From the NCBI GenBank assembly GCA_963717645.1, contig CAVQWQ010000001.1, positions 4,994 through 68,993 on the forward strand: DNA of 64,000 bases, read 5' to 3'. The position numbers and the translations under genes were made by a program. This document shows positions 19,670 through 37,066 of this stretch, in pieces. Source of the DNA: an uncultured Actinomycetes bacterium. GTDB lineage: Bacteria; Actinomycetota; Acidimicrobiia; Acidimicrobiales; AC-9. The notes under the pieces are model-generated. The model saw only the letters and a list, made by a program, of their open reading frames with translations, did no database searches and was not told the origin of the DNA. Positions within the stretch are counted from its first letter, which is position 1, and the number at the start of each line of letters is the position of its first letter.

Positions 19670-19738
19670 AACGGCGACAGGTCCTGGCGGTTTTCCGGCG
19701 TAGGTCCTGAGTCGTCGGACGTTGGAGCTGCTTCTACC

Positions 19739-20161: not shown

Positions 20162-20203
20162 CCAGCGTGCTAATCTGTAGCAGTAGCGCAGGAGGCACCC
20201 AAG

Positions 20204-21616
20204 ATGATGACCACCCGCAAGCCCCGCAACGCAGCGGTCTACTGCCGGATCTCCCGCGACCGGGATGGCCAGGCGCTAGGCGTCGCCCGCCAGGAGAAGG
20301 ACTGCGCCGAGTGGGCCGCCCGCCACGGGTGGACCGTGACGAGCACGCTCGTAGACGATGACCTCTCCGCCTACAGCGGCCGGGCCCGCCCCGGCTATCG
20401 CCGACTGCTCGCTGACATCGACGCAGGGCGCACCGACGGCCTTGTCATCTGGCACCCTGACCGCCTGCACCGCCGGCCGGCCGAGCTCGAGTCATTCATC
20501 GACCTAGTCGAGCGCACCGGGCTACTGATCGGCAGCGTGCAGAGTGGCGAGGTCGACCTCACCACCCCGACGGGGCGCATGAGCGCGAGGATCGTGGGCG
20601 CGGTGGCGAGGCACGAGAGCGAGCACAAGGCGGCCCGGCAGGCTCGTAAGCACCGAGAGCTAGCCGAGGAGGGTTCCCCGTCCGGTGGCGGGTCTCGACC
20701 CTTCGGATACGAGGACGACAAAGTGACTGTTCGCGACGACGAGGCCGAGCTCGTCCTCGAGGCGGCGGAGCGGGTGCTCGCCGGTGAGAGCCTCCGGGGC
20801 ATCGCGAGGGATTGGAACGACCGCGGGATCACCACGACGCCGGGGCGCCCCTGGTCGGTGACTACCTTACGCCGGATGCTGACCTCGGCCCGTGTGGCTG
20901 GTGACCGGGAGCACCACGGCGTCGTCACCGCCGCGGACGCGTGGCCCGCCATCCTCGACCGCAAGACGTCGGCGAGGGTCCGCGCCGTGCTCTCGGACCC
21001 GTCTCGTAGACGTCGGCCCGGACCGACCTACCTGTTGACCGGCCTCGTGCGCTGCGGGCGCTGCGGAGCCGTCATGGTGGCCCGCCCCGTGTGGCGCGGT
21101 GGGAAGCGCCTACGCCGCTACTTCTGCGCGTCCGACCCGCCGGCCCGTATCGGATGCAACAGCGTCGGGATCACGGCTGAGCCGCTCGACGAGCTGGTCA
21201 CCGAAGCCGTCTTGACCCGCCTGGACAGCCCGGCGCTAGCTCGGGCCCTGTCCAAGAAGAGCCGACCTAAGAACGGCTCAGAGGCGACCCTCAGGGCCCT
21301 CGAGGAGCGCGAGGCCCAGCTGGCGGAGATGTGGGCCGCGGGCGAATTGACCCGCTCAGCGTGGTCGGCTGCTCGCGACCGGCTAGCCAAGGAGATCGAG
21401 GCAGCACGGGCGAAGGTGGCCGGCAAGGTAAGCGATGAGGCGACGAGCGACCTCGTCGGCAAGGGCGAGCAGCTACGCCGCCGCTGGCCCAAGCTGTCGG
21501 TCGAGCAGCGGCGGGTAATCATCGCCAGCGTGGTCGAGTCGGTCACCATCGCCCCGGTCACCCGGGCGCAGAATCGCTTCGACGCCGGCCGGGTTTCAGT
21601 CCTCTGGCGGGCCTAA
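20204..21616 (+). CDS. large serine recombinase (integrase), intact
   Basis: 470 aa. The N-terminal resolvase domain reads AVYCRISRDRDGQALGVARQE...GLVIWHPDRLHRRPAELE. It also has a recombinase domain, a zinc-ribbon (CGRCGAVMVARP...RYFCAS...GCNSV) and a coiled-coil tail. A CAGGAGG RBS precedes it. Confidence 0.9.
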   Translation: MMTTRKPRNAAVYCRISRDRDGQALGVARQEKDCAEWAARHGWTVTSTLVDDDLSAYSGRARPGYRRLLADIDAGRTDGLVIWHPDRLHRRPAELESFIDLVERTGLLIGSVQSGEVDLTTPTGRMSARIVGAVARHESEHKAARQARKHRELAEEGSPSGGGSRPFGYEDDKVTVRDDEAELVLEAAERVLAGESLRGIARDWNDRGITTTPGRPWSVTTLRRMLTSARVAGDREHHGVVTAADAWPAILDRKTSARVRAVLSDPSRRRRPGPTYLLTGLVRCGRCGAVMVARPVWRGGKRLRRYFCASDPPARIGCNSVGITAEPLDELVTEAVLTRLDSPALARALSKKSRPKNGSEATLRALEEREAQLAEMWAAGELTRSAWSAARDRLAKEIEAARAKVAGKVSDEATSDLVGKGEQLRRRWPKLSVEQRRVIIASVVESVTIAPVTRAQNRFDAGRVSVLWRA

Positions 21617-22052
21617 ACCGGGATGACGAGCGGCCGATCCGGCTCGGCGGCCGCCCGTACCATGACGGCTCGCTGGAAGTTGTCCGCCCTCATCTGTGGG
21701 GTGTGGCCACACCGGGAGCGCCAGTGCCAGGTCGGGTCGCCCTGGAAGTAGGAGACGAACAGAGTCTCCCGCTCAAGCCGCTCCGCCCAAGCGTCACGCC
21801 TGCCGGGGCGGGAGACCACTTTCCCCTTGGCCCGAAGGAAGTCACCAGCTGGTGAACCGGACGCCGGAACACCGCGGCTGCGATCGCCTGCCTTCACACC
21901 CGGCTTGCCCTTGTGCGCCGTCGGCCAGCTCCGGAGTTCAGTGACGGGCTCCCGGCCATCCGAACCAACCCAGGGGCCACCGGGGGGAGGTCTAGGCGCT
22001 CCCCACAGGACTGGCACAGAACCTCGACGCGGATGCGCGCTTTCGGACTCAT
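21613..22052 (-). CDS. hypothetical protein divergent from the XRE gene; apparently needs a frameshift to be read through
   Basis: An ATG at 22052 follows an AT-richer stretch (gattatctgaaaATG) and gives MSPKARIRVEVLCQSCGERLDLPP..., stopping at 21894. The adjacent frame continues as ELRSWPTAHKGKPG...AWAERLERETLFVSYFQGDPTWHWRSRCGHTPQMRADNF...LVIPV* to 21613. I recognise no family. Confidence 0.35.
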
Positions 22053-22152
22053 TTTCAGATAATCTACTCCCACAACCGAGCGGCCGGAAGCCCCGCAGGA
22101 ACCTTCCATTACCTGCCTCACCGGGCAGGGGCGGTAGCCATCCGCCGGGAGG
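22053..22152. promoter_or_regulatory. divergent intergenic control region (candidate lysogeny-type switch)
   Basis: This 100-nt spacer lies between oppositely oriented starts (22052 minus, 22153 plus). It holds the lowest-GC stretch of this part of E2 (ttttcagataatctactccc). No operator repeats were confidently identified. Confidence 0.35.
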
Positions 22153-22386
22153 TTGTCGTGGCCAGGTTCCCCGCCGGGCCGATCGTTCGCAGGCAGGCGC
22201 GAGGCCTTGGGATTCTCGCCAGCGCTCGTCGCCGCCAAGGTCCATCGCACTGAGCAGTCGGTCGAAGGTTGGGAGGCCGGACGGCACCGGCCACCGCGAG
22301 CCGTCCTCGTCGCGCTTGCGCGGATCCTTGAGTTGCCCTTGCACGTCTTGGATGACGTTGACGATGACGTCGAGGTGTCAGCATGA
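22153..22386 (+). CDS. XRE-family helix-turn-helix transcriptional regulator
   Basis: GRREALGFSPALVAAKVHRTEQSVEGWEAGRHRPPRAVLVALARILELPLHVL fits the HTH_3 pattern (LS..eLA..vgvs...is.wE.G...P). The start codon (TTG 22153) is uncertain. Confidence 0.6.
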   Translation: MSWPGSPPGRSFAGRREALGFSPALVAAKVHRTEQSVEGWEAGRHRPPRAVLVALARILELPLHVLDDVDDDVEVSA

Positions 22387-22610
22387 GCCGGCCCGAGGAC
22401 GTCCGCCGGCTGATTGACCAGGCCGTCGCGCAGGGGCTTCCCAAGCACGTCGAGGACGTCCCGACCCTCGAGCGCGTCGCCGCCGTGGCGTGGGCCGGAC
22501 GCGAAACAGGGCCCCCTTCGGGGCCCTGTTCGGATTCTGGCTTGACCAGCCACCCTCGCCCCCCTGCCTCCCGTGCCAAGGAGGGAGGTCGACGTGTCTC
22601 CTCAGGGTAG
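22383..22610 (+). CDS. hypothetical small protein
   Basis: An ATGA overlap with the XRE gene suggests translational coupling. The N-terminus MSRPEDVRRLIDQAVAQGLPKHVEDVPTLERVAAV looks protein-like, but the C-terminal half is low complexity and contains a perfect hairpin. Confidence 0.4.
   Translation: MSRPEDVRRLIDQAVAQGLPKHVEDVPTLERVAAVAWAGRETGPPSGPCSDSGLTSHPRPPASRAKEGGRRVSSG
22505..22530 (+). other. perfect 11-bp stem / 4-nt loop hairpin
   Basis: AACAGGGCCCC-cttc-GGGGCCCTGTT. It lies inside ORF 22383..22610, has no convincing U-tract, and sits 64 nt before the strong RBS and GTG of the next gene. Confidence 0.7.
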
Positions 22611-22926
22611 CCGAAAGCCATCCCTCGGCGAGATTCGAGGGCAGCGACCGCCGCCTGAGCCGAGGTACCGGCCGATCCCCCGGAGGATCGCTGAGGGCAG
22701 GATCCGGGCCCTCGAGGACCTGTCCGAAATCATCGTGGCCGACATCGTCGAGTCAATCAACACGATGGTGGCCAGCGGTGCCACCCCGCATGATGCCGGC
22801 GTCACCGTCGTCGCCTGGTGGGGGAAGACGTGGTTCGCCGAGACCGTCGCCGCCGGGGCGATGAGGTGGGAGCTCGAGAACTGGAGCGTCAGCGAACTGC
22901 TCGAGCTGGGGGAGGAGGGGCCATGA
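22594..22926 (+). CDS. hypothetical protein
   Basis: An AAGGAGGGAGG RBS lies 6 nt before GTG 22594. A protein-like core reads RIRALEDLSEIIVADIVESINTMVASGATPHDAGVTVVAWWGKTWFAETV. I recognise no family. Confidence 0.45.
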   Translation: MSPQGSRKPSLGEIRGQRPPPEPRYRPIPRRIAEGRIRALEDLSEIIVADIVESINTMVASGATPHDAGVTVVAWWGKTWFAETVAAGAMRWELENWSVSELLELGEEGP

Positions 22927-23189
22927 AGCCTGACCACCTCCTCGGCCTGCCGAACGCTCAAGGCCCTCGCTGCCCCCTCGAGAGCGAGTTCCCGAAGATC
23001 AGCTACGCCATCGGCAACTGGCGCGAAGCCTGCGAGCGGCTCGAGGAGATCGCAGGCATCTTCGAGGACCGTGGTGGTCTGCCTCCAGGTAGCCAAGCCG
23101 AGATGCGGCAGGCACTCCGTCAGGCTGGCCAGGACGCCCTCGCCAAGATGCTGGACGACCTTGAGGCAGCTTGGGACGCGGAGCCATGA
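22923..23189 (+). CDS. hypothetical protein
   Basis: ATGA overlap with the preceding ORF. The sequence is MKPDHLLGLPNAQGPRCPLESEFPKISYAIGNWREACERLEEIAGIFEDRGG...; no family recognised. Confidence 0.45.
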   Translation: MKPDHLLGLPNAQGPRCPLESEFPKISYAIGNWREACERLEEIAGIFEDRGGLPPGSQAEMRQALRQAGQDALAKMLDDLEAAWDAEP

Positions 23190-25855
23190 GCGCCGTCGAG
23201 ATCATTGCGGCCTACGCCGAGCGGCTGTGGGACAACCGGGTCGGATGGGTCTTCGTCGCTAGCGGTGAGCCGTACGACGACGGCAAGGTACGCCATCGCG
23301 GCTGGGCCGAGCGGGCGTTCGCCTGGCCCCGTCACCGGGACGAGCTCGTCGAGACAATCACGACCATGTCGACTGGGCGCGACGTGTTCGTCACGCCGGG
23401 GATGTCAGAGAACCCGCTTCGCGACTCGAAGAAGCGCCGCGACCTGCCGACCTCGTACTTGTGGGCGGACCTCGATCGCGTCACTGATGAGGTGCACGAT
23501 CGCGTGACCGCGCTGGCTGACGGGGGAGGGTTTGTCGTCGACTCAGGCAGCGATGAGCACTGTCATGTCTACATCGAACTCGCCCAGCCGGCACAGCCGG
23601 CCCAGGCTGCCGAGCTCAACCGCCGACTCGCCCAGTACCTGGACGGCGACCCGAGCCCGGCCGCGCTCAACGCCTTCCTACGCCCGCCGGGCTCGCTCAA
23701 CTGGAAGCCATTCGTACTCGACCTAGCGGACGAGCCGGCGCCTGTGAGGACGACCTACGAAGCAGGGAGGGGCTGGCCGCTCGAGGAGCTGGACCGTCTG
23801 CTCCCGCCCGTACGAGCTACCCGCCATCGGACGGCCGACGAGGCCGAGGCGGAGCCGGTCGGTGACGTGCCGGCGGCTGTGGCCGTCTTCCTCGCCGACG
23901 CCGCGGACGTGGACGACCGATCGGCCCGCCATTACAACTTCGTCGGCGCGGCAACGGCCGCGGGCATGAGCGACGGCCAGATCTTGACCCTCGTCAAAGA
24001 CCACAAGCCGTCGACGGCCAAGTACGGCGAGCGCGTGGAGGAGGAGACGCGGCGCACGCTCGGCAAGTTCGTGACCGAGGAGCCAGAAGCCACAACGGGC
24101 AACGGCTGGCACCCGCCCGGGTGGATTGAGCCGGGCGACTGGGACGAGGACACCGTCGATGAGGACGTGTCTACCAAGGTAGACACATCGACCGGGGGCA
24201 AGGCGGGGATCATCAGCGCCGGCCGGCCGCCGATAGAGATAGAGACAAGCGAGGGCGAGTCCAGGAGCAGCATCGTTCGCAGGCTCCTAGCGACGAGCGA
24301 TGTCGCCGGAGCGGACGAGGTGGGTGTCGGCCCGGACGGGCTGCGCTTCACCGATGCCGGTAACGCCGCTCGCCTCCTGCGCGTGGCCGAGGGTCGTGTT
24401 CGCTTCGTCCACGCCTGGGGCAAGTGGATCGTCTACGGGCAGGGACGATGGGCCGTCGACTTCGGCGACGTGCTCGTCGGCGAGTTCGCCAAGCAGGTCG
24501 CCACCGAGCTGTTCGCTCGGGTCCCGTCGCTTCACGATCGCGAACGGGACCAGGTCTTCGCCTGGGCGAAGCGTTGCGAGACGAGAAGCACGATCGGCGC
24601 CATGGTCCACCTCGCCCGGGGCGCGGCGGTGATCGGGCACGAGGAGCTCGATACCGACCCCTGGATCCTGAACGTCGCCAACGGCACGGTTGATCTACGC
24701 ACCGGCCATCTCCGATCGCATCGGCCCGACGACCTGTGCACGATGCAGGTCCCGGTCGCCTACGACCCGGGCGCCCGGGCGCCGCTGTGGGAGGCGTGCC
24801 TCGAGCGCTGGCAGCCCGATCCCGAGGTGCGGGCCTATCTCCAACGCGAGGCCGGAGCAGGCGCCACCGGTCGCCCGACCGAGATCCTCGCCGTCCACCA
24901 CGGTGGGGGAGGCAACGGCAAGTCGAGGTACTTCGGTGCATTGGGTCGCACCCTCGGTCCCTACTTCGTCGTGCCCCACCGATCGCTCCTCGTCCGCCAG
25001 CGCCACGAACAGCACGACACGGTGCGGGCTGACCTGTTCCGTCGTCGTCTGGCCGTGGCCGCGGAGACCGACTCCGGGGCCCGCATCGACGAGGAGAAGG
25101 TGAAGGCCCTCACCGGAGGCGACCGGATCAAGGGCCGCCGCATGCGTGAGGACCCCTGGGAGTTCTGGCCCACGCACACTCTCGCCCTGTTCTCCAACTA
25201 CCGCCCGCGGGTGAAGGGAGAGGACACCGGCATCTGGCGTCGGCTGGTGCTGGTGCCGTGGAACGTGGAGATCCCACCCGGCGAACGGGACGACAACCTC
25301 GCCACCAAGTTGGAGACAGAGGCGCCGGGCATCCTCGCCTGGATCGTCGAGGGCGCGCGCCAGTTTTGCGAACGGGGTCTCGACCCACCGGAGGTAGTCA
25401 GGATGGCCACGGAGTCGTATCGAGCTAGTGAGGACACTTTCTCCCGCTTCGTCGAGGAGCGTTGCGAGCTCGACCCGGAGGCCCGGGCCAAGGCCGGTGA
25501 CCTGTGGGAGGCGTGGACCGATTACTGCCGGACCGAGGAGGAGCAGCCAGGGCGGAAGCAGGACGTCATGGCTCGGCTGGACACTCGATTCGCGCTGGCT
25601 GAACACCGCGTGGAGACAAGTCATCTTCAAGGGCGTCAGGGTCCAAGAGGAGGGGGGTCGACTGCCGTGAATCGTAACGCTCTGACCAGGGGGTTTTCGC
25701 GGCGACCAGGACTTTTGCGCAAGGCACGCAGGACTCGTCCCTATACCCACGCGAGGGCCCTATCTCTATGGGCGAACCGCCCGAGACCTGCGAGACCTGC
25801 AGCGATGACAGTTCCGGGTCTGAGGCGTGCCATGACAGTTCGAGGTGGACGATGA
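23186..25855 (+). CDS. replication protein: AEP-type primase-polymerase N-terminus fused to D5_N/P4-family SF3 helicase
   Basis: The AEP motifs are YLWADLDRV (DxD) and DSGSDEHCHVYIEL (sGxGxHxY). The D5_N-like region reads FTDAGNAARLL...WGKWIVYGQGRWAVD...NVANGTVDLRTG...YDPGARAPLWEACLERW. Walker A is HHGGGGNGKSRY. ATGA start overlap. The 3' end is uncertain (see findings). Confidence 0.85.
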   Translation: MSAVEIIAAYAERLWDNRVGWVFVASGEPYDDGKVRHRGWAERAFAWPRHRDELVETITTMSTGRDVFVTPGMSENPLRDSKKRRDLPTSYLWADLDRVTDEVHDRVTALADGGGFVVDSGSDEHCHVYIELAQPAQPAQAAELNRRLAQYLDGDPSPAALNAFLRPPGSLNWKPFVLDLADEPAPVRTTYEAGRGWPLEELDRLLPPVRATRHRTADEAEAEPVGDVPAAVAVFLADAADVDDRSARHYNFVGAATAAGMSDGQILTLVKDHKPSTAKYGERVEEETRRTLGKFVTEEPEATTGNGWHPPGWIEPGDWDEDTVDEDVSTKVDTSTGGKAGIISAGRPPIEIETSEGESRSSIVRRLLATSDVAGADEVGVGPDGLRFTDAGNAARLLRVAEGRVRFVHAWGKWIVYGQGRWAVDFGDVLVGEFAKQVATELFARVPSLHDRERDQVFAWAKRCETRSTIGAMVHLARGAAVIGHEELDTDPWILNVANGTVDLRTGHLRSHRPDDLCTMQVPVAYDPGARAPLWEACLERWQPDPEVRAYLQREAGAGATGRPTEILAVHHGGGGNGKSRYFGALGRTLGPYFVVPHRSLLVRQRHEQHDTVRADLFRRRLAVAAETDSGARIDEEKVKALTGGDRIKGRRMREDPWEFWPTHTLALFSNYRPRVKGEDTGIWRRLVLVPWNVEIPPGERDDNLATKLETEAPGILAWIVEGARQFCERGLDPPEVVRMATESYRASEDTFSRFVEERCELDPEARAKAGDLWEAWTDYCRTEEEQPGRKQDVMARLDTRFALAEHRVETSHLQGRQGPRGGGSTAVNRNALTRGFSRRPGLLRKARRTRPYTHARALSLWANRPRPARPAAMTVPGLRRAMTVRGGR

Positions 25856-26484
25856 GCCGCGGTGTGGCGGGCCCCGGTGTGCCTCGATGCGGTGTGCCGA
25901 GGCGTCGGAACGGCGACGGCGAGCGAGTCGACTACGGCGAGGGCGAGCCATGTGAACGGCCGGCCGGATGGGGAACGCCGAACGCCGGCGTGCCCGGCAC
26001 GCCATGCAAGCTGCACGGGGGATCGCTCCCCAACAACGTGAGTGCCGCCACCCGCCGGCGCGTCGAGTTGGAGTGCACCGCGCTGCTCGCTGAGCACGAC
26101 GTCACGCCCGTCACTGACTCTGTCGCCGAGCTCGAAGTGCTCGCCGGCGAGGTGCTCGCTTGGCGCGATCTTCTACGGCAGCGCTTGGGCGAACTGCATC
26201 CCGAGGACTGGCGGTACGCGGGCAAGGTCGGCGAGGAGTTGCACGCGACGGTCGCCCTCTACGAGCGGTCGCTCGACAAGGCGGAGCGGATCCTGACCAG
26301 CATGTCGAAGTTGGGGATCGCCGGCCGCAAGGTCCAACTCGAGGAGGCGAGGTTCGACCTGATGGCCAACCTGGTCGAGCTCACCCTGGCCGACCTCGGC
26401 GTCGACGCCGCCGACCGGGACGTCCGAGCGGTGCTCCATCGCCACGCCACCGCCCTCGAGGCAGCCAGCGAGGAGCACTTCTAG
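25852..26484 (+). CDS. terminase small subunit-like protein
   Basis: It lies directly upstream of the large terminase. The N-terminal Cys/Gly motif RCGVP...GEPCERPAGWGTPNAGVPGTPCKLHGGSLPN resembles the C...PC...C.HGG motif I associate with actinophage TerS/DNA-binding proteins. A helical C-terminus follows. GAGGTGG RBS. Confidence 0.55.
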   Translation: MSRGVAGPGVPRCGVPRRRNGDGERVDYGEGEPCERPAGWGTPNAGVPGTPCKLHGGSLPNNVSAATRRRVELECTALLAEHDVTPVTDSVAELEVLAGEVLAWRDLLRQRLGELHPEDWRYAGKVGEELHATVALYERSLDKAERILTSMSKLGIAGRKVQLEEARFDLMANLVELTLADLGVDAADRDVRAVLHRHATALEAASEEHF

Positions 26485-26578
26485 TGACACGTTGGCCGAC
26501 CCCAACGTTCGGTGTAGAAGCCAGCGCCCGAATAGGCAGGCAGCATGCGGGGTCTAGTTACACCCTCCAGGAGCGACC

Positions 26579-27328
26579 ATGACCCGCCTGGGCCGCCGCT
26601 GGGCACCACCGCCGCCCGCCATCGACGCCGTCGGCCTCATGCAACAGGCAGCGATGACGCCTGACCCATGGCAGTGCGACCTTCTCAACGCCAGACCGGC
26701 ACGGGCGTTGGTCAACTGCGCGCGCCAGACGGGCAAGAGCACGGTCGCCTCGGCGATGAGCATCCATGAGGCGATCGTCGATGAGGGATCGACGACGCTG
26801 ATGGTCAGCCCATCCCAACGCCAGTCGAGCGAGCTCCTTGGCCGCGTGCGGGCTCTCCTGTCCCGCCTGCCCGACCCACCAGCCGTCGTCAACGAGTCGG
26901 CACTCCAGATCCGGCTCGAGAACGGGAGCCGGATCCTGTCGTTGCCCGGCAAAGAGGGCACGATCAGGGGCTACACGGCGTCGACGTTGGTGCTGGACGA
27001 AGCGGGGCGAATCCCGGATGAGCTCATCGAAGCCACGAGGCCAATGCTCGCGGCAAGCGGTGGAAGGCTCATCGCCATGAGCACGCCGGCCGGTGCCAGA
27101 GGCTGGTGGTGGGAGGCCTGGGTCGGTGCAGGGCAGTGGCATCGGGTGGAAGTGCCCGCCGCCCAGTGTCCTCGCATCTCGCCGACGTTCCTCGCCGAAG
27201 AACGAGCCACCTTGCCCGACGTGGTGTACCGGGCCGAATACTGCTGCGAGTTCACCGACGCCGTCGACAGCGCGTTCCGAGCCGAGGACATCGACGCCTG
27301 CCTGTCCGACGAGGTCGAGCCGCTGTGA
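26579..27328 (+). CDS. terminase large subunit, ATPase domain only
   Basis: Walker A is NCARQTGKSTVAS and Walker B is STLVLDEAG, then MSTPAGARGWWWEAW. It stops at 27326-27328, while the nuclease domain continues in another frame from GTG 27325. Confidence 0.75.
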   Translation: MTRLGRRWAPPPPAIDAVGLMQQAAMTPDPWQCDLLNARPARALVNCARQTGKSTVASAMSIHEAIVDEGSTTLMVSPSQRQSSELLGRVRALLSRLPDPPAVVNESALQIRLENGSRILSLPGKEGTIRGYTASTLVLDEAGRIPDELIEATRPMLAASGGRLIAMSTPAGARGWWWEAWVGAGQWHRVEVPAAQCPRISPTFLAEERATLPDVVYRAEYCCEFTDAVDSAFRAEDIDACLSDEVEPL

Positions 27329-28627: not shown

Positions 28628-28654
28628 CGCATACATTGCGCGCCGTAACGCGGC

Positions 28655-29426: not shown

Positions 29427-29750
29427 ATGGTCGAAGCCGGTCGCCTCGAGGTCGAAGCGGCGAAGTGCGCCGGCTACGACCCGAACCGCGAACGCCAGCT
29501 CCTCCTTGATGCCTCGAGGCTCCGGCGCGAGGCGAACGACACGATCGAGATAGTGCGCGAGGTCGACCAGCTCAACAAGGTCGCCGCCGCCGACACCGCC
29601 GACACTGTGTTCGCGATGCGTCGGGTTCGAGCGGCCGAGTACCGGGCGAAGGCCCACCAACACGTCCATGATCGACGACCTGTTTCGGCTTACAGCCTGA
29701 AGAGAGCATACCGCGCGAGCGCGGTGAGGACTAACCGAGGAGGACCATGA
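29427..29750 (+). CDS. hypothetical coiled-coil protein
   Basis: MVEAGRLEVEAAKCAGYDPNRERQLLLDASRLRREANDTIEIVREVDQLNKV.... The upstream part of track ORF 29259.. is Arg/Cys-rich junk, so an upstream frameshifted extension is possible. Confidence 0.4.
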   Translation: MVEAGRLEVEAAKCAGYDPNRERQLLLDASRLRREANDTIEIVREVDQLNKVAAADTADTVFAMRRVRAAEYRAKAHQHVHDRRPVSAYSLKRAYRASAVRTNRGGP

Positions 29751-30043
29751 GACAGGTCGTCGCGAAGAACATCGTCGCTAGCGGCAACACTGGAGCGGCC
29801 GAGTACCGGGAGGGTGTCGCCGTGGACATCGTCCGATGGGGCTCCGTGCCTGTGCAGATTCAGTTCGGCTATACCGCTGCAGACCGGTTCAGGATCACCA
29901 ACGTTCGTACTGGCTTCTGGGCTGAAGGTGACAGCGAGGCGGTGCTCCTCGTCGACGAGGAGCACCGGTACCGCCCCGCCGATGGTCGCGCCGTGGATGT
30001 CGGCCAGTTCCAGGGCCTCGAGCCCCAGCTGAGCTGGCCGTAA
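29747..30043 (+). CDS. hypothetical small beta-rich protein
   Basis: A GGAGGA RBS and ATGA overlap with the preceding ORF. The sequence is MRQVVAKNIVASGNTGAAEYREGVAVDIVRWGSVPVQIQFGYTAADRFRITNVRTGFWAEGD.... It is followed by an A-tract and hairpin cluster. Confidence 0.5.
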   Translation: MRQVVAKNIVASGNTGAAEYREGVAVDIVRWGSVPVQIQFGYTAADRFRITNVRTGFWAEGDSEAVLLVDEEHRYRPADGRAVDVGQFQGLEPQLSWP

Positions 30044-30064
30044 AAAAAGAAATCGGGACTGGCG

Positions 30065-30170
30065 GCAGCGGGGCAGGGCTGCCTCGCTGCGCCGTCTCGA
30101 CGGGGGGAGGGGTTTCTCGGCCCCTCCCTCCGACGACGGGGGCGGGGCTCGCCTCCTGGTCCCCGCCCCC
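30065..30170 (+). terminator. cluster of three GC-rich hairpins after an A-tract (module-end terminator candidates)
   Basis: taaaaaaagaaatc comes first. Then GCAGCGgGGCAGggCTGCCtCGCTGC (30065-30089), GGGAGGGG-tttctcgg-CCCCTCCC (30103-30130) and GGGGGCGGGG-13 nt-CCCCGCCCCC (30138-30170). Confidence 0.55.
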
Positions 30171-30558
30171 GTCACGGGCTGGGGACCCGGCAATAACGAC
30201 AGATCGAAAGATGTGATTGCGCACACGTCGTCGACAGATGGAGACCGAGCCAAACCGCTCCCTGCCGGGCGCTTCCTGAGTGTCCCCGCTCCGGTCGCTC
30301 GCCACGCCGAGGCGCACCTCATCGGCGGCCCCGGTGAGGAGACGCCCCACATCAAGATCTGAGATCACCCCGGCCGGTCCATGGCCCGCACCTGGCGTAC
30401 GGGTCGCAGGCGGGCGTGCTGCACGTTTCCACGGCGCGCACCGCTCGTCTGCCCGGCCGGGCCCCACGGGTCCACGACGTTTCGTGACGGGGGCGTCGCC
30501 GCGGCGAACGGACGGCCGCGGCCCCGGCCGGGTCCCGGTGGGGCAGAGGGCGTCCGTT

Positions 30559-30576
30559 GGGCATGTGCACATGCCC
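30559..30576. promoter_or_regulatory. perfect 18-bp palindrome GGGCATGTGCACATGCCC
   Basis: Self-complementary on inspection. It lies in a ~700-nt stretch without a convincing gene, just upstream of a zinc-ribbon coding remnant. Confidence 0.5.
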
Positions 30577-30792
30577 GCTATCCCGGGTCAGAGGGAGAGC
30601 CGATACCCGAGCTCGAGCGACTGCCTTGCCCGAGCTGCTCGAGCACTGAGATCGTCGGAATGCGCGACGGGTTTCCGGCGACGGCTATCTGTCGCGCCTG
30701 CCAGCACCGATTTCAGCTGGCGGTACGGGACCGACATTCACAACCGTGAGACGGCCACCGTCGGCGACAACGTCTTCGGTGCCCCGCCAGAG

Positions 30793-31700
30793 TCACGGCA
30801 CCGCGAACTCCGCCGGGGTGACGTAGCTGGCGTCGTGGGTGATCTCGCCGTGGAGCGCGGCGGTGGTTGAACCAGTCGACGTAGGTGAGCGTGGCGAACT
30901 CGACGTCCTCGACACCCCTCCAGGGGCCCCGGTGGTGGATGAGCTCGAACTTGTAGAGCCCGATGAAGCTCTCGGCCATGGCGTTGTCGTACGAGTCGCC
31001 TCTGGATGCCGACCGAGGCGCACGATGTCGTTCTCGGCGAGGCGCTCGGTGAAGCGAATGGACAGATATTGACTGCCCGGTTCAATGCGATGGACCAGGA
31101 AGATCGAGATCTGGCCGGCTCCGGTGCAGTCGAGACGGCCATCTCGAGGTGCGTCGTCGCAAGGCTGAGCTCAGACGGGCGACGATCTTCCATCCAACGA
31201 GCCTTGCGGGAGAACGGCTGTTGAGGATGGATGCGGCGTACACCCAGCCCGGAATGCGTCTTCACGTAGGTCAAGTCGGCCACCCAGAGCCGGTTTGGGG
31301 CCCGGTGCCTTGAAGTTGCGCTCGACGAGGTCGTCGGGGCGGTGCTGGCGGTCATCGGCATGCGGTCGTGACCTTGTAGGTCCGTCCCCGCCGGCGCCCA
31401 CAAAGGCCCAGCTCACGCATCAGGCGCTCGACAGTGCAGCGGGCGACTCTGGTGCCCTCTCGGTTGAACTGGGTCCAGACCTTGTCGACCCCGTAGACGG
31501 AGAGGTTGTCGGCGTGGACCCGCGGCGATGGCCACCTTGAACTGCTGGTCGTCTCCGCTCGCGGGCTCGAGCGGCGGACGCTTCTTGGCCACCCAGTAGG
31601 TGTTCGGGGCGATCTTGCAGCCGTGCTCGGTGAGCACCCGGCAGATCGGCTCGACCCCGAAGCGGTCCCGGTGTGCGTCGATGAAGGCGACGATCAGCGC
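30793..31700 (-). pseudogene. IS3-family transposase OrfB (DDE), at least 3-4 frameshifts
   Basis: Pieces occur in three frames: [41 protein letters not shown]; NLSVYGVDKVWTQFNREGTRVARCTVERLMRELGL; PNRLWVADLTYVKTHSG; DSYDNAMAESFIGLYKFELIHHRGPW...YVDWFNHRR; LHGEITHDASYVTPAEF. Confidence 0.8.
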
Positions 31701-32041
31701 TGTTGGCGGTCGAGCTCCGCCCCGAAGAAATGGGCTGCTGACTTGAGGATTTCGTTGGCCCGCCGCAGCTCCTTCACCTCACGTTCGAGCTCCTTCATCT
31801 TCACCCGTTCGTCGGTGGTGAGCCCGGGCCGCTCCCCAGCGTCGATTTCCGCCCGACGGACCCACTGGCGGAGCGTCTCGTGGTTGATCGAGAGCTTCGC
31901 CGAGATCGACTCGATGGCCTTCCACTGCGACGGGTACTCGTCCTGGTGGTCGAGGACCATCCGCACGGCCCGTTCCCGGACCTCCGGTGGGTACGGCGGC
32001 CGCCGGCCCTCCTCTTCCCTGGCATGGCTCCATCCTCTCAA
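31694..32041 (-). CDS. IS3-family transposase OrfA (HTH)
   Basis: [95 protein letters not shown] is the classical IS3/IS911 OrfA pattern. Confidence 0.85.
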
Positions 32042-32075
32042 GAGAAAAACAAGGGACCGCAGTGGGCCTTTACTA

Positions 32076-33185
32076 TCAGAAGAGTCTGTCCAACAGGTAC
32101 GCGAAATTGGACCCCCAGACGTGCCCGCCAGCGACGGCTAGCCGGGGGAGCAACACGGCGGCTACGAACGTCAAAGCCGTCACTCTCCGAACAAGAGGAG
32201 TGCTGAAGGCCCGGGTCGAGTACAACGCGAACCACAGCGTGACAGGCCACATGAGCAAAGCGAATACTCGCGTCTCGTCGTTTGTGAACATTGTGGCGAC
32301 CGTGGCCGCGCCGAAGGCTGAAAAGAGTACCCGTCTCACACGCCTATCTGGCAGCCGGGTCCACAGTGATGCGACAAACACCCAGAACGCGCTCATCGTA
32401 GTGTAGAGCCAAGTAGGCAATTCGTAGAGGAAAGACTTGAACAGTCTAGCGGGGCCAACAAGAGAGATGTATGAGCCACGGGCCTCCAAACCGGCACCGG
32501 CGTGCGCGACATACAGCTCTACGCCAACGGCCCCGCCAACCAGACCAGCCAGCCCTGGAACTGAGGCGGTCCAGCTAGTGCGTCTGGTCGTATCTACTGC
32601 TCGCAATGCCAAGAGTATTGCAATCGTAAAGACGCCGACCTCTAGGTGGCTGATTGCCAGCCCGAACCCAGCGACCAAGCCCATGAATGGAGACTCAAAG
32701 AGGACGGCCAGGGACGCGAAAAGGAAGGTAAAGGGATCTTGGGCGAACAGCGTCATCAGGACGTTCGACAGGGGTGTGGCGAAGAGGGCGATGATGCCGA
32801 CACCCAGCCCCATGCGCCCTCCCGTACGCCAGAGGCCAAGGGCTAGTACGACGAGCGCAACGACGAGCACCGTCAGCTCCATCGCAGCATACGCGGTTCG
32901 CCCGTGAAGGCCTAGTACATGCGCGAGAGCGGGGCCGATCGGGGAGCCCTGCATCCACCGCTCTCCTCTTGGAAGACCAGGATTGCCAGGGAATGCGGCG
33001 CTGATCCTCAGCCAGGAATGCACATCCAGCTCGGTTAACCCGTTCTTGAAGAGGTTCAGTACAGCGACGACGGAGAGGAAGAGCCATGCCGGGGATTCGA
33101 ACACGAACCATTCGAGTCGGTCCACGGTACGTTGCCACCAGGATGGCGTGGTAACCACACCGTGGGTACTTCGAAGCTCATCCAT
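32076..33185 (-). CDS. polytopic integral membrane protein (about 9-10 predicted TM segments), unknown function
   Basis: 369 aa with many hydrophobic stretches ([120 protein letters not shown]). It is visibly lower in GC than its surroundings. Confidence 0.65.
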
Positions 33186-33490
33186 CTCCTGAGGACTCTC
33201 CCGAGCACGGGGGCTTCATGCAACAGAAGACGGCGAGCATCGGCAGAAGGTTACGTGGGTCGTGGCCTAGATGCGCTCGACTGGAGCAGCCCCCGCATCC
33301 TTCTCACGCCGACCGAGCGGGCGTAGGCTGGCGCCCAGCGCCCGATGAGATTCCCGCCACCCTCCGACGCACGATGGCACGCAGGGACCAGGCCCTCTCC
33401 TACGTCGCCGCCATCGACCGCTGGGCGCTGCCCCGGGTGTGGAAGACCGACCCGGCGGCCATGGGCGAACTGATCGGCGAGATGATGTCG

Positions 33491-33754
33491 CTCCTTGGCA
33501 AGCAAGGCCCGGAGGCCGTTAGAGAGCCGGTCAAGACGGCGCTGCACCTCGCCTAGGTCGCCGAGCAGCCGCATGGCGTCCTCGCGCTTCATCGCCAGTG
33601 CGCCGGGCTGAAGCATGGCGACCGACCGACGCAGCTGCTCGATCTCCTCTTTGGCGAGGTGAGGCCGGCGGGGCGCTGGCACGAACGTATGTCCCCATCC
33701 GAGCTGGAGAGGGTCAAGCCGATCAGCCGTTCGGGAGCGGGCACCTACCGCCAC
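33491..33754 (-). repeat. R-family copy 5 (most complete; canonical stop lost, reads on to 33251)
   Basis: ...LGWGHTFVPAPRRPHLAKEEIEQLRRSVAMLQPGALAMKREDAMRLLGDLGEVQRRLDRLSNGLRALLAKE... aligns residue-for-residue with copy 4 (18802-19034). After LRALL it diverges from the GEDV* end of the other copies. Confidence 0.65.
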
Positions 33755-34910
33755 CGGGTGCGGGCCACGGTCGGCTCCCAGGCCCGAGTGGCGATGGACG
33801 GGGTACTGTAGGAGACGATCCGCGTGAGCTGTGAGACAACCAAGCCGTGGCCCGGCCAGGTCGTTAGCAGGTCAGGCACCTATGTCGTCATCAACCAACG
33901 CTGCGTACGGGCGCCCGACCATCCGGGCGAGCGGTGCGCGTGCAGCGAAAAATGGTCGGCGTGACTGGCGAGGAGGCTGGACGCCATTGAGGCCAACGCC
34001 AAGAATCGCATCGGCAAGCCGCTGCGGCAAGGAGGTCAAGTGAGGCGAGCGCTTGTCCTGCTCGCCCTCGTGGCAGCGGTCGCTCTGCTGTCCGTGCCAC
34101 CCGCCGAGGCAGCGGGGCGCACCGTCCACGTCTCGGGCCTGACGCCCTGAGAGATCGCAGGGGGAGCGGCCGGAGCAGCTGACTGCGCCCCAGCAGGGAA
34201 GCCGGGCGGCGGCCTTACCTGTCTGACAGGACACAGTGAGACCACCTTCACCCGTCGAGGGAGGGGCTAGCCTCGGCTTCCTCTTCGCTCGCCTATCCGA
34301 GGGTGACCCCGATGGACGGGCTAGCTAGGGCGTCCACTCTTATACCCACCATCGGCCAGTCCGCCAGGGCGCCTGCTGAGGTGGGTCGATGCAGGGGGGA
34401 CGCATTCCGGGGTGTAGGCGCCCCCGTGAGCCCCCCGGACAGGAGGGCCGGCACTAGATACCCCCAATATGTGCAGACCCTCGGGGTAGCCTCGACACTC
34501 GGTGCTCCCCGCCGCCGACCCTGCCCCCAAGTCCTTCCACCGGGCCGTTGAGCGCCGCAACGCCGCCCTGGACGGCCCCGCACTGGCTCGTCTGTAGCAG
34601 GCCAGGCCCGACGCCATGCTGGAGGTCACCTCGACCATGGTGGACGAGAACCTGGCCGGCGTGTGGGGCGGCCTGCGCGTTCCCCGACACCGTCTTCCCC
34701 GACATCGAGCTCACGACACCGTTCTTCCGCGTCTCCCACACCGGCAACGTGGCGCGGATGATCTGCTCGAGGTGCGCGGTCAGCCACCACCTCCGGTTGT
34801 GACGCTTGTCATGGTGAACCCCAACCTCGCCCAGGCGTACGCTCCGCATAGCCATGCTGTCCGGCCGTCCTCCTGGGGCCGGCCATGACGGGCTCGAGTG
34901 GAGGAGCGAC

Positions 34911-36128
34911 ATGTCCGATCTCGCCGTCACCTACAACCCCTTCGAGCCGGGGTTCGCCAGCAATCCCTACCCCCACTACCAGGCCCTGCGAGAGGCCGAC
35001 CCGGTCCACCACAGCCCGCTGGGATTCTGGATGCTCTTTCGCCACGACGACGTCCTGCGCTTCCTGCGCGATCCCGGGCTCAGCGTCGAGGACCGGCGGG
35101 CGACCCCGACGCCTTTGGACGACCTGGCTCGCGAGGTGCAGGGCGATCGGGCTGAGCGTGGAAGCCTCGCCATGCTCAATCGCGATCCGCCTGACCACAC
35201 CCGCCTGCGGCGGCTTGTCTCCAAGGCGTTCACCCCGAAGGTGATCGACGGGCTACGACCCCGAATCGGTCGCCTGGTGGAGGACAAGCTGGACGCCATC
35301 GAGGCGGCCGGGGAGGTCGAGCTGATCAGCGCCCTCGCCTTCCCCCTGCCCTTCGAGGTGATTTCAGAGATGCTGGGCATGCCGGACGGCGACCGCGACC
35401 AGCTCCGCGAGTGGTCAGGCACGCTCGTCAAGAGCCTCGAGCCGATGTTCGACGTCGAGCAGCTGCAGGCGATCGTCGAGGCTGGCGACGCCATGCGGGA
35501 GTACACCACCGACGTCATCTCGTGGAAGCGGCGCAACCCAGCCGAGGACCTCCTCTCCGCCCTCGTCGCGGCGGAGGAGCAGGGTGACGCCCTCTCCGAC
35601 GAGGAACTGCTCGAGCAGGTCATGCTCCTCTACATCGCCGGCCACGAGACCACCGTGAACCTGATTGGCAACGGCACCCTCGCCCTGATGACCAACCCCG
35701 ACGAGCTCGAGCGCCTCCGCGCCGACCCGTCCCGCGACGCCAACGCCGTGGAGGAGCTGCTGCGCTACGACAGCCCAGTGCAGATGTCCCGACGCATCAC
35801 CCTGGTCGAGGTCGAGATCGACGGCAAGCTCATCGAGCCTGGCAGCTTCGTGGGCCTGGGGCTTGCGTCGGCGAACCGAGACCCGGTCCACTGGGGCGAG
35901 AGCGCCGACGAGCTCGACCTCGCCCGGCAGGGTGCTGGCCAGCACGTATCGTTCGGCGGCGGACCGCACTATTGCCTGGGTGCGGCGCTGGCTCGCCTCG
36001 AGGGGCAGCTGGCCATCGGCGGCTTGATCCGGCGGTTCGCCAATCTCGAGCTGGTGGGCGAGCCGCAATGGAACGGCCGCCTCAACCTGCGGGGCCTGGC
36101 CGGACTGCCGGTCGCAGCCCGGCGCTGA
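34911..36128 (+). CDS. cytochrome P450 (island cargo)
   Basis: A GGAGGAG RBS precedes MSDLAVTYNPFEPGF...LNRDPPDHTRLRRLV...YIAGHETTVNLI (I-helix)...EELLRYDSP (ExxR)...VSFGGGPHYCLGAALAR (heme Cys loop). Confidence 0.9.
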   Translation: MSDLAVTYNPFEPGFASNPYPHYQALREADPVHHSPLGFWMLFRHDDVLRFLRDPGLSVEDRRATPTPLDDLAREVQGDRAERGSLAMLNRDPPDHTRLRRLVSKAFTPKVIDGLRPRIGRLVEDKLDAIEAAGEVELISALAFPLPFEVISEMLGMPDGDRDQLREWSGTLVKSLEPMFDVEQLQAIVEAGDAMREYTTDVISWKRRNPAEDLLSALVAAEEQGDALSDEELLEQVMLLYIAGHETTVNLIGNGTLALMTNPDELERLRADPSRDANAVEELLRYDSPVQMSRRITLVEVEIDGKLIEPGSFVGLGLASANRDPVHWGESADELDLARQGAGQHVSFGGGPHYCLGAALARLEGQLAIGGLIRRFANLELVGEPQWNGRLNLRGLAGLPVAARR

Positions 36129-36260
36129 GGCCGGCCACGAGTGCCGGCGCTTCGCCCTGGCCCGTCCGGCCTTGCGCGGCATCTGGGGCGGCCTCACCGA
36201 GGACGAGCAGGAGGAGTGGCGGGCACTGTATAGGGAGATGGCTCCTCGCCATCCGGCCCG

Positions 36261-36545
36261 TCACTGTTGACGGTACTCGTCCACCTGGTCCTGAAAGCTC
36301 TGCAGCACGTCTTGCATCTCCCTCTCGCCGCCGCGGGCCCGAATGACACTGAGGCTGTGCCCGGCGATGCCGAACGCTACCGACGACATGGCTGCCAGTG
36401 AGCGAGGATCCGTCGGTGCGGTGGCGTCGATCTGCGCTACTGCCAGTTGATCGCCAGATAGCCACGCCTTCAAGCGCTGGAGGGTGCGGTCGGTGGCGTC
36501 CGCAATGAGCTGTCGGTCTGCCGGGCTCGGGGGGTCGTCAGCCAT
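36261..36545 (-). CDS. hypothetical small protein
   Basis: A 94-aa ORF with reasonable composition (MADDPPSPADRQLIADATDRTLQRLKAWLSGDQLAVAQIDATAPTDPRSLAAM...MQDVLQSFQDQVDEYRQQ). No family recognised. Confidence 0.45.
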   Translation of the reverse strand: MADDPPSPADRQLIADATDRTLQRLKAWLSGDQLAVAQIDATAPTDPRSLAAMSSVAFGIAGHSLSVIRARGGEREMQDVLQSFQDQVDEYRQQ

Positions 36546-36658
36546 GCAGTAATGGTCTCACGGAGGGATGGCCTTGATCCGGGGCATGGAGACCCCTTGG
36601 AGGGCAGGGTGCCCTCGTTCTCCTTGTTTCGCGTTCAGTCACCTAGGCTCGACCTTCT

Positions 36659-37066
36659 GTGGCCATCGCCGCCGAACCAATCTGGCCGCAGGGAGGTCAG
36701 GCTTCCCCCGTCGCCGGGGCGGATTGGCTGGACTGGGCCAAGCCCCCGGCGTGGGCGGCCGATGCCGCGTGCAAGGAGCACCCGGAGCTCGACTTCGTGC
36801 CTCCGTCCGGCGTCTACCTGGCTTCTCTCCGGGCGGTCTGCGAGGGGTGCCTCGTGCGCCGGGAGTGCCTGGCCTACGCCATGGCTGACGCGACCCTGCA
36901 GGGCGTGTGGAGTGGGACGACGGAGCGGGAGCGGAAGGCGATGCGGGGTCGGCTTAGAGCCCGGAGAGGGTGGCGACCCGGGCGCGGTGTTGGCGGGCCG
37001 TGCCGAACACGGCGTCGCCGGACTTCGCCCGCTTCACGTACAGGTGCATGTCGTGCTCCCAAGTGA
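36659..37066 (+). CDS. WhiB-like (Wbl) iron-sulfur transcription factor; the 3' end reads across the island/host junction
   Basis: The Cys pattern C-x24-C-x2-C-x5-C (AACKEHPELDF...AVCEGCLVRREC) and the GVWSGTTERER motif (G[VI]WGG..ER) are Wbl hallmarks. The start (GTG 36659) is uncertain. The last ~37 codons are antisense to the ACAD gene end. Confidence 0.7.
   Translation: MAIAAEPIWPQGGQASPVAGADWLDWAKPPAWAADAACKEHPELDFVPPSGVYLASLRAVCEGCLVRRECLAYAMADATLQGVWSGTTERERKAMRGRLRARRGWRPGRGVGGPCRTRRRRTSPASRTGACRAPK

Follow-up and report, generated by a model that had tools for sequence, protein, structure and literature searches.

A 64,000-nucleotide stretch of contig CAVQWQ010000001.1 (assembly GCA_963717645.1, an uncultured bacterium of the Acidimicrobiales), hereafter the window, contains an integrated element of 17.1 kb, designated E2 (20161-37308), in which a serine integrase and a replication module are found together with a packaging terminase encoded by two genes. 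A degraded sister element, E1, lies directly before it. Since the G+C content is about 70% throughout the window, genes were called by third-position G+C (GC3) and then checked with Pfam and PHROGs. The conserved block of E2 extends over about 10 kb and comprises the following features, among which L003 stands for a homologous locus treated below.

20161-20203, + strand: end of the element next to the integrase, bearing the conserved motif CCAGYGYGCTRATCTGTAGCAGTAG; putative attL arm on the element side
20204-21616, + strand: large serine integrase, 470 residues, intact (Resolvase, Recombinase and Zn_ribbon_recom domains; phrog_95, E = 8e-105)
22153-22386, + strand: XRE-type helix-turn-helix (HTH) regulator, 77 residues (HTH_31, E = 3.5e-10)
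22383-22610, 22573-22926 and 22923-23189, + strand: three small coupled open reading frames (ORFs), with ATGA overlaps at 22383, 22923 and 23186
23186-25855, + strand: primase-helicase, 889 residues (D5_N, E = 3e-26; DUF5906, superfamily 3 helicase)
25852-26484, + strand: protein with Zn-ribbon and long helices, 210 residues, in the usual position of the small terminase subunit (TerS)
26579-27328, + strand: ATPase-only gene of the large terminase subunit (TerL), 249 residues, intact (Terminase_6N; phrog_7579, E = 7e-60)
27325-28247, + strand: TerL nuclease gene, about 307 residues, with a Cys-rich C-terminal tail (Terminase_6C; phrog_27743)
28235-28627, + strand: HTH_17 protein, 130 residues (HTH_17, E = 1.7e-7; phrog_66, excisionase)
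28655-29086, + strand: small conserved ORF (conserved part 28763-29008)
29030-29750, + strand: pseudogene of a family-specific helical protein of about 233 residues, from alignment to the L003 homologue
29747-30043, + strand: ORF of 98 residues (GC3 0.80)
30053-30173, + strand: three consecutive G+C-rich hairpins, found by folding, that close the plus-strand operon

In outline, this is the gene order proposed in the first-pass annotation, an earlier reading of the same DNA: the integrase, the XRE gene, the primase-helicase, TerL, the HTH gene, IS3 OrfA and the P450 gene are all recovered with Pfam and PHROGs. The start/stop overlaps reported there are all present (ATGA at 22383, 22923, 23186 and 25852; GTGA at 27325). 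What had been described as a divergent small gene beside the XRE gene amounts to only about 50 codons with coding-like GC3 (21620-21770, minus strand) and has no homologue, and one of the three ORFs correctly placed after the HTH gene, 29030-29750, turns out to be a pseudogene. The three small ORFs of 22383-23189 have no match in Pfam, PHROGs or PADLOC. The primase-helicase matches phrog_2478 (E = 8.5e-104) and phrog_1156 (E about 1e-103) and is 37-39% identical to mycobacteriophage primases; its N-terminal region is probably a primase-polymerase. The HTH_17 protein, which besides its excisionase family weakly matches phrog_57 (TerS), is a candidate excision factor (recombination directionality factor or Xis) or DNA-recognition protein. 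No family match was obtained for the ORF 28655-29086, 38% identical to an 83-residue protein of L003 and 34% to its counterpart in a second related locus, L174, nor for the 98-residue ORF 29747-30043.

The cluster of strong terminators reported previously after these ORFs is real as a structure: the three hairpins of 30053-30173 fold at -102.6 kcal/mol (z = -6.0; none of 200 shuffles folds as well), and the segment 30085-30177 is 81% identical to the hairpin cluster of L003 (13895-13991). A simple terminator scan, which gave fewer sites than in shuffled sequences, missed the cluster because it has no U-tract, so that it was seen only by folding. It is likely a terminator devoid of a U-tract, or another cis-acting site. 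As a side observation, a conserved triple hairpin could exceed the role of a terminator, for example as a packaging or replication site.

TerL, previously taken for a single gene, is in fact encoded by two, the ATPase gene (26579-27328) and the nuclease gene (27325-28247), joined by the GTGA overlap at 27325. The match of the ATPase to phrog_7579 spans profile positions 3-237 of 239 and all invariant motif residues (RQxGKS, DE, STP) are present; the nuclease, after conceptual repair of a frameshift, keeps D9, D15, D77, K119, E150 and HDD174-176. The possibility that the split itself is a pseudogenising frameshift was considered and rejected, the split being the norm in this family. Indeed, the E2 ATPase has more than 1,400 relatives, the best 120 of which all measure 195-312 residues, and a profile search of 1.84 billion cluster representatives retrieved 2,442 clusters (50% identity) at E <= 1e-30. 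When the best 150 of these are considered, about five sixths are shorter than 395 residues and thus comprise hardly more than an ATPase domain, the remainder being longer and presumably fused. Among 172 loci, the 156 ATPase genes (median 264 residues) and the 132 nuclease genes (median 229 residues) form separate, adjacent clusters. The ATPase ends at the domain boundary where the nuclease starts, a pattern to which E2 conforms.

The best homologues of the E2 ATPase are 73% and 65% identical. Among isolated phages the nearest are Thermus phage Riverbug and Meiothermus phages MMP7 and MMP17 (ATPase 48-50% identical), in all of which TerL is fused and the portal and capsid genes come next. In a rough neighbour-joining (distance) tree of ATPases, the clade of E2 consists solely of capsid-less elements (L003, L004, which lies on the same contig as L014, L006, L013, L015, L029, L038 and L173); its named sources (L004, L013, L015, L029 and L038) are metagenome-assembled genomes (MAGs) of Acidimicrobiaceae or Thermoleophilia. 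Outside this clade, phage and element terminases interleave. Two of its members are minimal versions: in L006 (7898-11382) a tyrosine integrase, one small ORF, ATPase and nuclease lie within about 3.5 kb, and in L004/L014 (393-11490, from an Acidimicrobiaceae MAG) three tandem integrase units are followed by a single terminase module.

A small ORF usually precedes the split terminase, and the representatives of two clusters of such ORFs match TerS families in PHROGs. The E2 protein in this position (25852-26484) had been called TerS-like; no TerS match was found, and comparison with Pfam, PHROGs and PADLOC yielded nothing beyond a weak match to a PHROG of unknown function. The name is thus a positional one, and a TerS role is possible from the place of the gene. 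Its 17 homologues all carry the motif C..C.RPAGWGT.H.G.G.CKLHGG, and its AlphaFold model (mean pLDDT 85.5) comprises a Zn-ribbon-like N-terminal part and long helices, with no Foldseek match in PDB or BFVD at E <= 0.001. The gene lies directly upstream of the terminase in E2, L013, L015 and L180, whereas in L003, L173 and L174 it precedes the terminase by one or two ORFs; it also occurs in L175-L177, small tyrosine-integrase elements for which no terminase family was recorded.

In agreement with the first-pass annotation, portal, capsid, protease, tail and lysis genes were found in none of the E2 ORFs with Pfam, PHROGs and PADLOC. That annotation had also suggested looking for hidden capsid proteins in predicted structures, and neither of the two AlphaFold models obtained, that of the 210-residue protein (Zn-ribbon and helical) and that of the protein of about 233 residues (helical), resembles an HK97-like or jelly-roll fold. 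A hidden capsid in the latter protein was specifically considered and rejected, its helical model having no match in a viral structure library; its intact L003 form has no other relatives in the protein collection searched.

This copy of the element bears lesions. Relative to the L003 homologue, whose 308 residues align in two frames to 27325-27435 and 27438-28244, the nuclease gene contains a 1-nt frameshift at about 27436. The pseudogene 29030-29750, 53% identical to the 233-residue L003 protein, is interrupted by in-frame stops near 29084 and 29231, and its reading frame changes between 29374 and 29394. No such damage affects the integrase, primase-helicase and ATPase genes, which are intact. 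A second, noisier assembly of E2 (L008), with 53 indels relative to the window over 10.6 kb, has the nuclease frameshift in common with it; the frame change within the nuclease gene is either a real lesion or an assembly error. General assembly noise was rejected as an explanation, the Pfam domains of eight flanking host ORFs giving no sign of frameshifts; the lesions thus seem to be confined to E1 and E2. The nuclease frameshift and the pseudogene, together with the remnant of an IS3 element that follows the conserved block, suggest that self-packaging of E2 has probably been lost. E2 looks recently disabled and E1 long dead, E2 being on the same path of decay as its neighbour. Neither this decay, nor the split of TerL, nor the tandem degraded E1 had been recognised previously.

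Relatives of E2 were examined at the best 80 loci per collection; their ORFs were called crudely, as the longest ORFs weighted by GC3, and structural genes were sought by BLAST and with hidden Markov models (HMMs) built from related phages. ENA assembly ERZ25039489 is the common source of L003, L008, L173 and L174, and the isolate prefix MFD is found on several related MAGs. L003 is 58% identical to E2 in its integrase, 73% in its ATPase, 60% in its nuclease and 44% in its HTH_17 protein, shares the next two ORFs and WhiB as well, and no capsid, portal or tail Pfam family was recorded among its called genes. L174 shares the Zn-ribbon protein, the HTH_17 protein (57%), the protein of about 230 residues and WhiB, again with no capsid, portal or tail family recorded. 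Its TerL (6708-8378) is of a different type, a fused protein of 556 residues with a Zn-ribbon tail that is 27% identical to the E2 ATPase, and the genes beside this swapped TerL are 34-57% identical to those of E2; the terminase function has therefore been kept through replacement of the module. The replication modules vary likewise, from the D5-type primase of E2 to DUF3854 in L003, Prim-Pol/DUF3987 in L174 and a DnaG-like primase with AAA_25 in L173. Such varied modules within a constant architecture argue for a selected design rather than debris.

The terminase module was found at 46-56% identity in at least 540 loci of species-representative genomes, from Actinomycetota, Chloroflexota, Acidobacteriota, Proteobacteria, Bacillota, Planctomycetota and Deinococcota among the bacteria and from archaea including Methanoperedens and Methanospirillum. 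Where long flanks were available (35 loci), an integrase was seen in 26, a large ORF upstream, commonly a primase, in 28 and an adjacent nuclease in 31. Neither portal nor major capsid genes were detected by BLASTP or with the related-phage HMMs in the genomic loci L003-L092 (the 80 best and ten others). For fourteen elements the limits are marked by direct repeats (17-65 bp) that derive from tRNAs; these elements are 7.0-16.5 kb long and end soon after the nuclease gene. A PHROG scan of 93 further ORFs of these 14 elements gave no head family among the 25 most-hit families listed, which included primases, helicases, methyltransferases and excisionases; this is a weak indication, since a family hit by one member alone would not appear in such a list.

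The picture differs in IMG/VR, where 31 of 80 loci match HMMs of the gene clusters that follow the terminase, the representatives of four such clusters being a portal or major head protein. In phage contigs, portal, protease and major capsid genes follow the terminase directly; the IMG/VR contigs in which portal or head genes come after the terminase are phages, and their recovery indicates that such genes are detectable when present.

These comparisons bear on the alternative, raised from the outset, that E2 is the remnant of a temperate actinophage in which the genes for head, tail and lysis were deleted beyond the terminase, close to the IS3 element. The decay of E2 would agree with it (the nuclease is frameshifted, one gene has become a pseudogene, and what is left of an IS3 element comes straight after the conserved block), as would the neighbouring E1, which clearly is a remnant, and the existence of real phages with the same type of terminase. 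Against this, L003 and L174 keep the order HTH_17, ORF of about 100 residues, protein of about 230 residues and WhiB after the terminase, with no capsid, portal or tail family recorded, so that the truncation point proposed near 30 kb would have to be shared by diverged elements that differ in their replication modules and, in the case of L174, in the terminase itself. Moreover, the 14 repeat-bounded relatives (7-16.5 kb) stop shortly past the nuclease, no portal or capsid fragment has been kept in the genomic loci L003-L092, no morphogenetic fragment is seen in E2, and no full-length relative closer than the best ATPases (73% and 65%) was found. We regard this explanation as improbable. The first-pass annotation had left the choice between a satellite and a truncated prophage open; with L003 and L174 capsid-less and repeat-bounded elements recurring in many phyla, a satellite-like nature fits much better.

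Several relatives occur as circles, namely two IMG/VR contigs of 11.7 and 15.1 kb that have terminal repeats, the 11.2-kb plasmid pSR11 of Salinibacter ruber M8 (L179), and a 16.3-kb plasmid of Streptomyces virginiae NBC_00248 (NZ_CP108092.1). The latter encodes an integrase, a primase-polymerase, a homologue of the Zn-ribbon protein, a split terminase and, annotated next to last, a WhiB family regulator; it also encodes DUF2637. We take DUF2637 to be typical of spread proteins of actinomycete conjugative plasmids. ParA is present on pSR11 and L112. It has already been mentioned that small S. ruber plasmids encode terminases (PMC6060240). In three further loci (L010, L011 and L012) the small ORF and split terminase occur with genes for Prim-Pol, a DEAD helicase, VirB4/TraG-like proteins and a coupling protein of a type IV secretion system, so that one replicon holds both packaging and conjugation genes.

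A further alternative is that E2 is more akin to a plasmid that integrates, in the manner of the actinomycete integrative and conjugative elements (AICEs), and that its terminase pair serves E2 itself or interferes with phages; it might resolve replication concatemers, or block or cut the DNA of incoming phages, with no hijacking of capsids. The plasmids carrying ParA (pSR11; L112), the DUF2637 of the S. virginiae plasmid and the VirB4/TraG-like genes of L010-L012 would be in keeping with this, and terminase-targeting interference is a known theme among satellites and in prophage-encoded defence. On the other hand, the pair keeps the full catalytic signature of a packaging terminase and shares 48-50% identity with the TerL of isolated phages. 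In nearly all cases a small protein stands ahead of it where TerS would be expected, and two clusters of these proteins have representatives matching TerS PHROGs. Among the E2 ORFs there was no match to FtsK_SpoIIIE, Tra, Spd, Nudix or relaxase families, and PADLOC found no defence family in the ten E2 ORFs tested (the ORFs lacking an assigned function, the cargo ORFs and the Zn-ribbon protein). We consider this explanation rather unlikely.

A tape-measure gene was observed downstream of the terminase in L065 (12411-15182), L071 (9742-12465) and pSR11 (7132-9015), with PHROG E-values of 2e-40 and 3e-119 and a weak 9e-9 for pSR11; these carriers, one of which is a Methanomicrobiales archaeon, still have no portal or capsid gene. 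The tape-measure gene of some relatives, together with the several ORFs that have neither homologues nor family matches, might be thought to indicate complete miniature viruses, some of the small ORFs encoding shell proteins that have escaped recognition. In the conserved block of E2, only about five small ORFs (75-143 residues) and one pseudogene of about 240 residues would be available for such a purpose; the two modelled proteins are Zn-ribbon/helical and helical rather than HK97-like or jelly-roll, and the smallest repeat-bounded relatives (7.0-8.6 kb) leave no room for a morphogenetic module. Of the explanations weighed here, this one appears highly improbable.

Taken together, we favour, with a probability of roughly 0.55, the reading of E2 as a member, by now in partial decay, of a widespread class of satellite-like elements that are small, replicate themselves, are usually integrative, and have a terminase but no capsid. 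E2 has the features of that class, namely a replication module, an integrase, a small ORF followed by TerL, a bounded length in the range of about 7-17 kb and no portal or capsid gene; the satellite lifestyle of the class is what we infer from them. A more specific proposal, which we put forward tentatively and at somewhat less than even odds, is that these elements form an undescribed satellite class in both prokaryotic domains that brings its own motor (a recognition protein and a split TerL), has no capsid, and seizes helper procapsids at the portal instead of remodelling capsids or redirecting the terminase of the helper. With the same reserve, and as a joint statement with it, this class might span bacteria as well as methanogenic and methanotrophic archaea, in integrative or plasmid-borne form.

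On the favoured reading of E2, a signal from a helper phage would cause the serine integrase to excise the element, the HTH_17 protein probably assisting it as directionality factor, and the primase-helicase would replicate the excised circle. The terminase of the element would then recognise and cut element DNA and dock on the portal of helper procapsids, so that element DNA would be packaged instead of phage DNA, and only the heads and tails of the helper would be needed. The helper would be a phage of a related split-terminase lineage, and its portal would have to accept this lineage of terminase; the related IMG/VR phages plausibly represent that lineage.

Several points weigh against the satellite reading. 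No experiment or virome read set places any member inside particles, and E2 itself bears inactivating lesions. No helper phage was found for the actinobacterial clade, the closest isolated phages, those of Thermus and Meiothermus, having a fused TerL. A bona fide TerS was not identified in E2, and the positional candidate also occurs in elements with no recorded terminase family. Outside E2, very divergent capsids could escape detection by BLAST and HMMs. The few members with a tape-measure gene mean that the lack of structural genes is not universal, and the VirB4/TraG-like genes of L010-L012 indicate that the module is not bound to one transfer route.

Among described systems, the phage-inducible chromosomal islands (PICIs), for example those of Staphylococcus aureus (SaPIs) and of Gram-negative bacteria, resemble E2 as small islands (about 10-15 kb in the PICIs) with a terminal integrase, a regulator, a primase-replicase, a packaging module and an accessory cargo arm, and with no structural or lysis genes. 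Whereas PICIs, which depend on a helper phage to be induced, replicated and packaged, limit their packaging genes to TerS, a TerS-redirecting protein, Rpp or capsid-remodelling genes and use the TerL of the helper, E2 encodes a full TerL (ATPase and nuclease); it further differs by its serine integrase and its site within a protein-coding gene, and no sequence relationship to PICI genes was seen. The exact PICI layout claimed previously does not hold, since E2 has terL, which separates capsid-forming PICIs (cfPICIs) from PICIs in the SatelliteFinder models (PMC10085698), yet has none of the cfPICI capsid genes. The cfPICIs, like E2, have their own terminase and a packaging independent of the helper terminase, but they encode a major capsid protein, portal, protease and head-tail connectors (PMC10085698, PMC10690885), none of which is detectable in E2 or its relatives. 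The unusual character attributed in the first-pass annotation to an actinobacterial PICI-like element with a serine integrase is attenuated by the mycobacterial PICI-like elements, among which a candidate PICI with a serine integrase has been described (PMC10654092); SatelliteFinder, for its part, treats serine and tyrosine recombinases as exchangeable (PMC10085698).

These mycobacterial elements, phiRv1 and phiRv2 included, are actinobacterial, small and integrative like E2. phiRv1 relies on a serine integrase together with an excision factor of the HTH type, and it also encodes a primase and a terminase. However, such elements are defined by an integrase plus a major capsid gene (PMC10654092), and E2, compared with phiRv1 by description, has neither capsid nor protease. 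The Streptomyces satellites MulchRoom and MiniFlayer share with E2 their occurrence in Actinomycetota and their own terminase (small and large subunits in both; PMC10690885); as they encode portal, capsid and scaffold proteins and no primase (PMC10690885), E2 with its primase-helicase and no capsid module is their mirror image.

P4-like satellites have in common with E2 an integrase and a primase-helicase of the P4/D5 family; their core set further comprises sid, psu, delta, alpA and epsilon. P4, about 10 kb in length, exists as a plasmid or in integrated form and has Psu, Delta and cos sites. It also has Sid and uses the terminase of its helper (PMC10690885). Sid, Psu and Delta were not seen in the general scans of E2, no search aimed at sid, psu or delta having been made. 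The hallmarks of AICEs, an FtsK-like Tra, Spd and often Nudix besides integrase, Xis and Rep, are missing from E2 as far as FtsK_SpoIIIE, Spd and Nudix matches are concerned. Riverbug, MMP7, MMP17 and the IMG/VR phages belong to the same terminase lineage as E2 (48-50% ATPase identity for the isolated phages), and many IMG/VR contigs also have a split TerL, with a small ORF ahead of it where TerS would be; in these phages portal, protease and major capsid genes come directly after the terminase, whereas in E2 the HTH gene, small ORFs and cargo do. Marine integrative mobile elements encapsidated in virions (VEIMEs) carry small terminase subunits and 'motor-like ATPases' (PMC9618062). In the literature searched, which may miss papers, no description of capsid-less terminase-carrying elements was found, the only mention being that of the S. 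ruber plasmids (PMC6060240).

The limits of E2 and its relation to E1 follow from a direct repeat of 347 bp (99% identity, 344/347 bases), found at 14190-14536 and 36961-37308, which corresponds to the last approximately 115 codons of the acyl-CoA dehydrogenase (ACAD) gene 36954-38603 (minus strand). The corresponding features are listed here.

14190-14536, - strand: left repeat copy, the displaced original 3' end of the ACAD gene, within the ORF 14170-14592 (minus strand)
14537-20160, + strand: E1, degraded sister element in tandem with E2 (from Pfam, junction sequences and L003 alignment)
14580-15993, + strand: E1 serine integrase, frameshifted at about 15040 (the L003 integrase aligns in two frames)
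36961-37308, - strand: right repeat copy, the element-borne 3' end of the ACAD gene, in frame with the body of ACAD 36954-38603 (minus strand)

The element therefore runs to 37308, ending in this copy of the 3' end of its target gene, and not to 36988 as previously proposed. E2 sits inside the ACAD gene and supplies a substitute 3' end; this end is fused in frame to the ACAD body, so that the gene remains open, and the Acyl-CoA_dh_1 domain was found in the full-length gene. Two elements, E1 (14537-20160) and E2 (20161-37308), lie between the repeat copies. Over the first approximately 470 bp compared, their integrase genes are 88% identical in DNA, and the motif CCAGYGYGCTRATCTGTAGCAGTAG stands immediately upstream of both, at 14539 and 20162. 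At the junction between E1 and E2 (20127-20160), just the last approximately 11 codons of ACAD and its stop codon are retained; these approximately 34 bp of ACAD tail look as if about 320 bp had been deleted between GGCGCG and GGCGTG. E1 also carries cargo, a GYD protein (18465-18785) and a fragment of a T2SSE ATPase (19739-20089, minus strand), and a Gly-rich repeat ORF (17830-18123) was observed in it after the ORF 17276-17818.

It would appear that the element carries a copy of the ACAD tail next to its attachment site and that integration rebuilds the gene together with an attB-like site, which would make a second, tandem integration possible; a re-integrable site regenerated at the ACAD tail may explain tandem arrays. 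Because the 347 bases are near-identical, the crossover point cannot be fixed within the repeat, and integration may also have occurred by homologous recombination through this segment. A tRNA scan found no tRNA gene in the window, hence the target is not a tRNA, and an Rfam scan of 13000-39000 gave as its sole match the pseudoknot of the IS3 element.

Beyond the hairpin cluster, the right part of E2 consists of the following.

30713-32041, - strand: IS3-family remnant, OrfA intact and OrfB fragmentary
32076-33185, - strand: cargo gene of a hydrophobic protein of 369 residues, from its translation; lowest-GC stretch of E2 (0.605)
33251-33754, - strand: copy of a repeated small-gene module (repeat families D4-D6), also in E1 and L003
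34854-36128, + strand: cargo gene of a cytochrome P450 (PF00067)
36659-36958, + strand: regulator of the WhiB family, at the element's right end (PF02467, E = 7.8e-15)

The IS3 element reported previously is present in part: its OrfA (31694-32041, minus strand) matches HTH_Tnp_1 and is accompanied by an ALIL frameshift pseudoknot (31605-31736, minus strand; RF01497, 74.5 bits), but OrfB is reduced to an rve_2 fragment (30713-30979). The 369-residue protein, probably a multi-pass membrane protein, has no family match. WhiB is present as well, on the plus strand at 36659-36958, and the minus-strand ORF 36261-36545 has no Pfam match; a WhiB homologue is also found at the right end of the available L003 and L174 sequences. 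L008 is 98.6-99.9% identical to the window over most of E2 and only 92.8% over the segment of the IS3 element and the membrane protein (window 30801-34148), and it has about 785 bp extra at window position 34148/34149, which suggests population variants in the cargo arm.

The small-gene module 33251-33754 has no Pfam match. Four copies are present in E1, one in E2 and two in L003, with positions on the minus strand at 16122-16197, 16852-16992, 18354-18429, 18799-19020 and 33482-33704 and, in L003, at 17040-17860; most of those in the window are frameshifted or lack a stop codon. The encoded protein, to which no Pfam family corresponds, contains ...EEIEQLRRS.AMLQPG.LAMKREDAMRLLGDL..., and the segment 33592-33719 is 93% identical to L003 17154-17282, the other aligning stretches of E2 and L003 being 65-81% identical. 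A host P450 gene (12919-14166) adjoins the displaced ACAD tail, the second P450 gene being that of the E2 cargo arm. That the P450 and gene-tail region is duplicated host DNA was considered and rejected; the E2 P450 is not a local duplication because it is 33% identical to the host P450.

Known satellites borrow the terminase of their helper (P4, cos-type SaPIs), redirect it (by TerS or Rpp, in PICIs) or build capsids of their own (cfPICIs, MulchRoom). If the reading preferred here is true, a whole packaging enzyme carried with no capsid would be a fourth satellite strategy, and to our knowledge no satellite of head-tail phages has been described in some of the phyla, and in the archaea, that the module reaches. 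The cultured carriers Salinibacter ruber M8 (pSR11) and Streptomyces virginiae NBC_00248 (the 16.3-kb plasmid) make the class testable. Regeneration of an intact gene 3' end upon integration is a simple path to tandem arrays such as that of E1 and E2. Elements of this kind will be misclassified by island finders for which the presence of a terminase gene proves a prophage. Should they indeed be satellites, they could account for some of the 'viral' contigs of IMG/VR devoid of structural genes, and they would represent a large, uncounted share of the mobilome.

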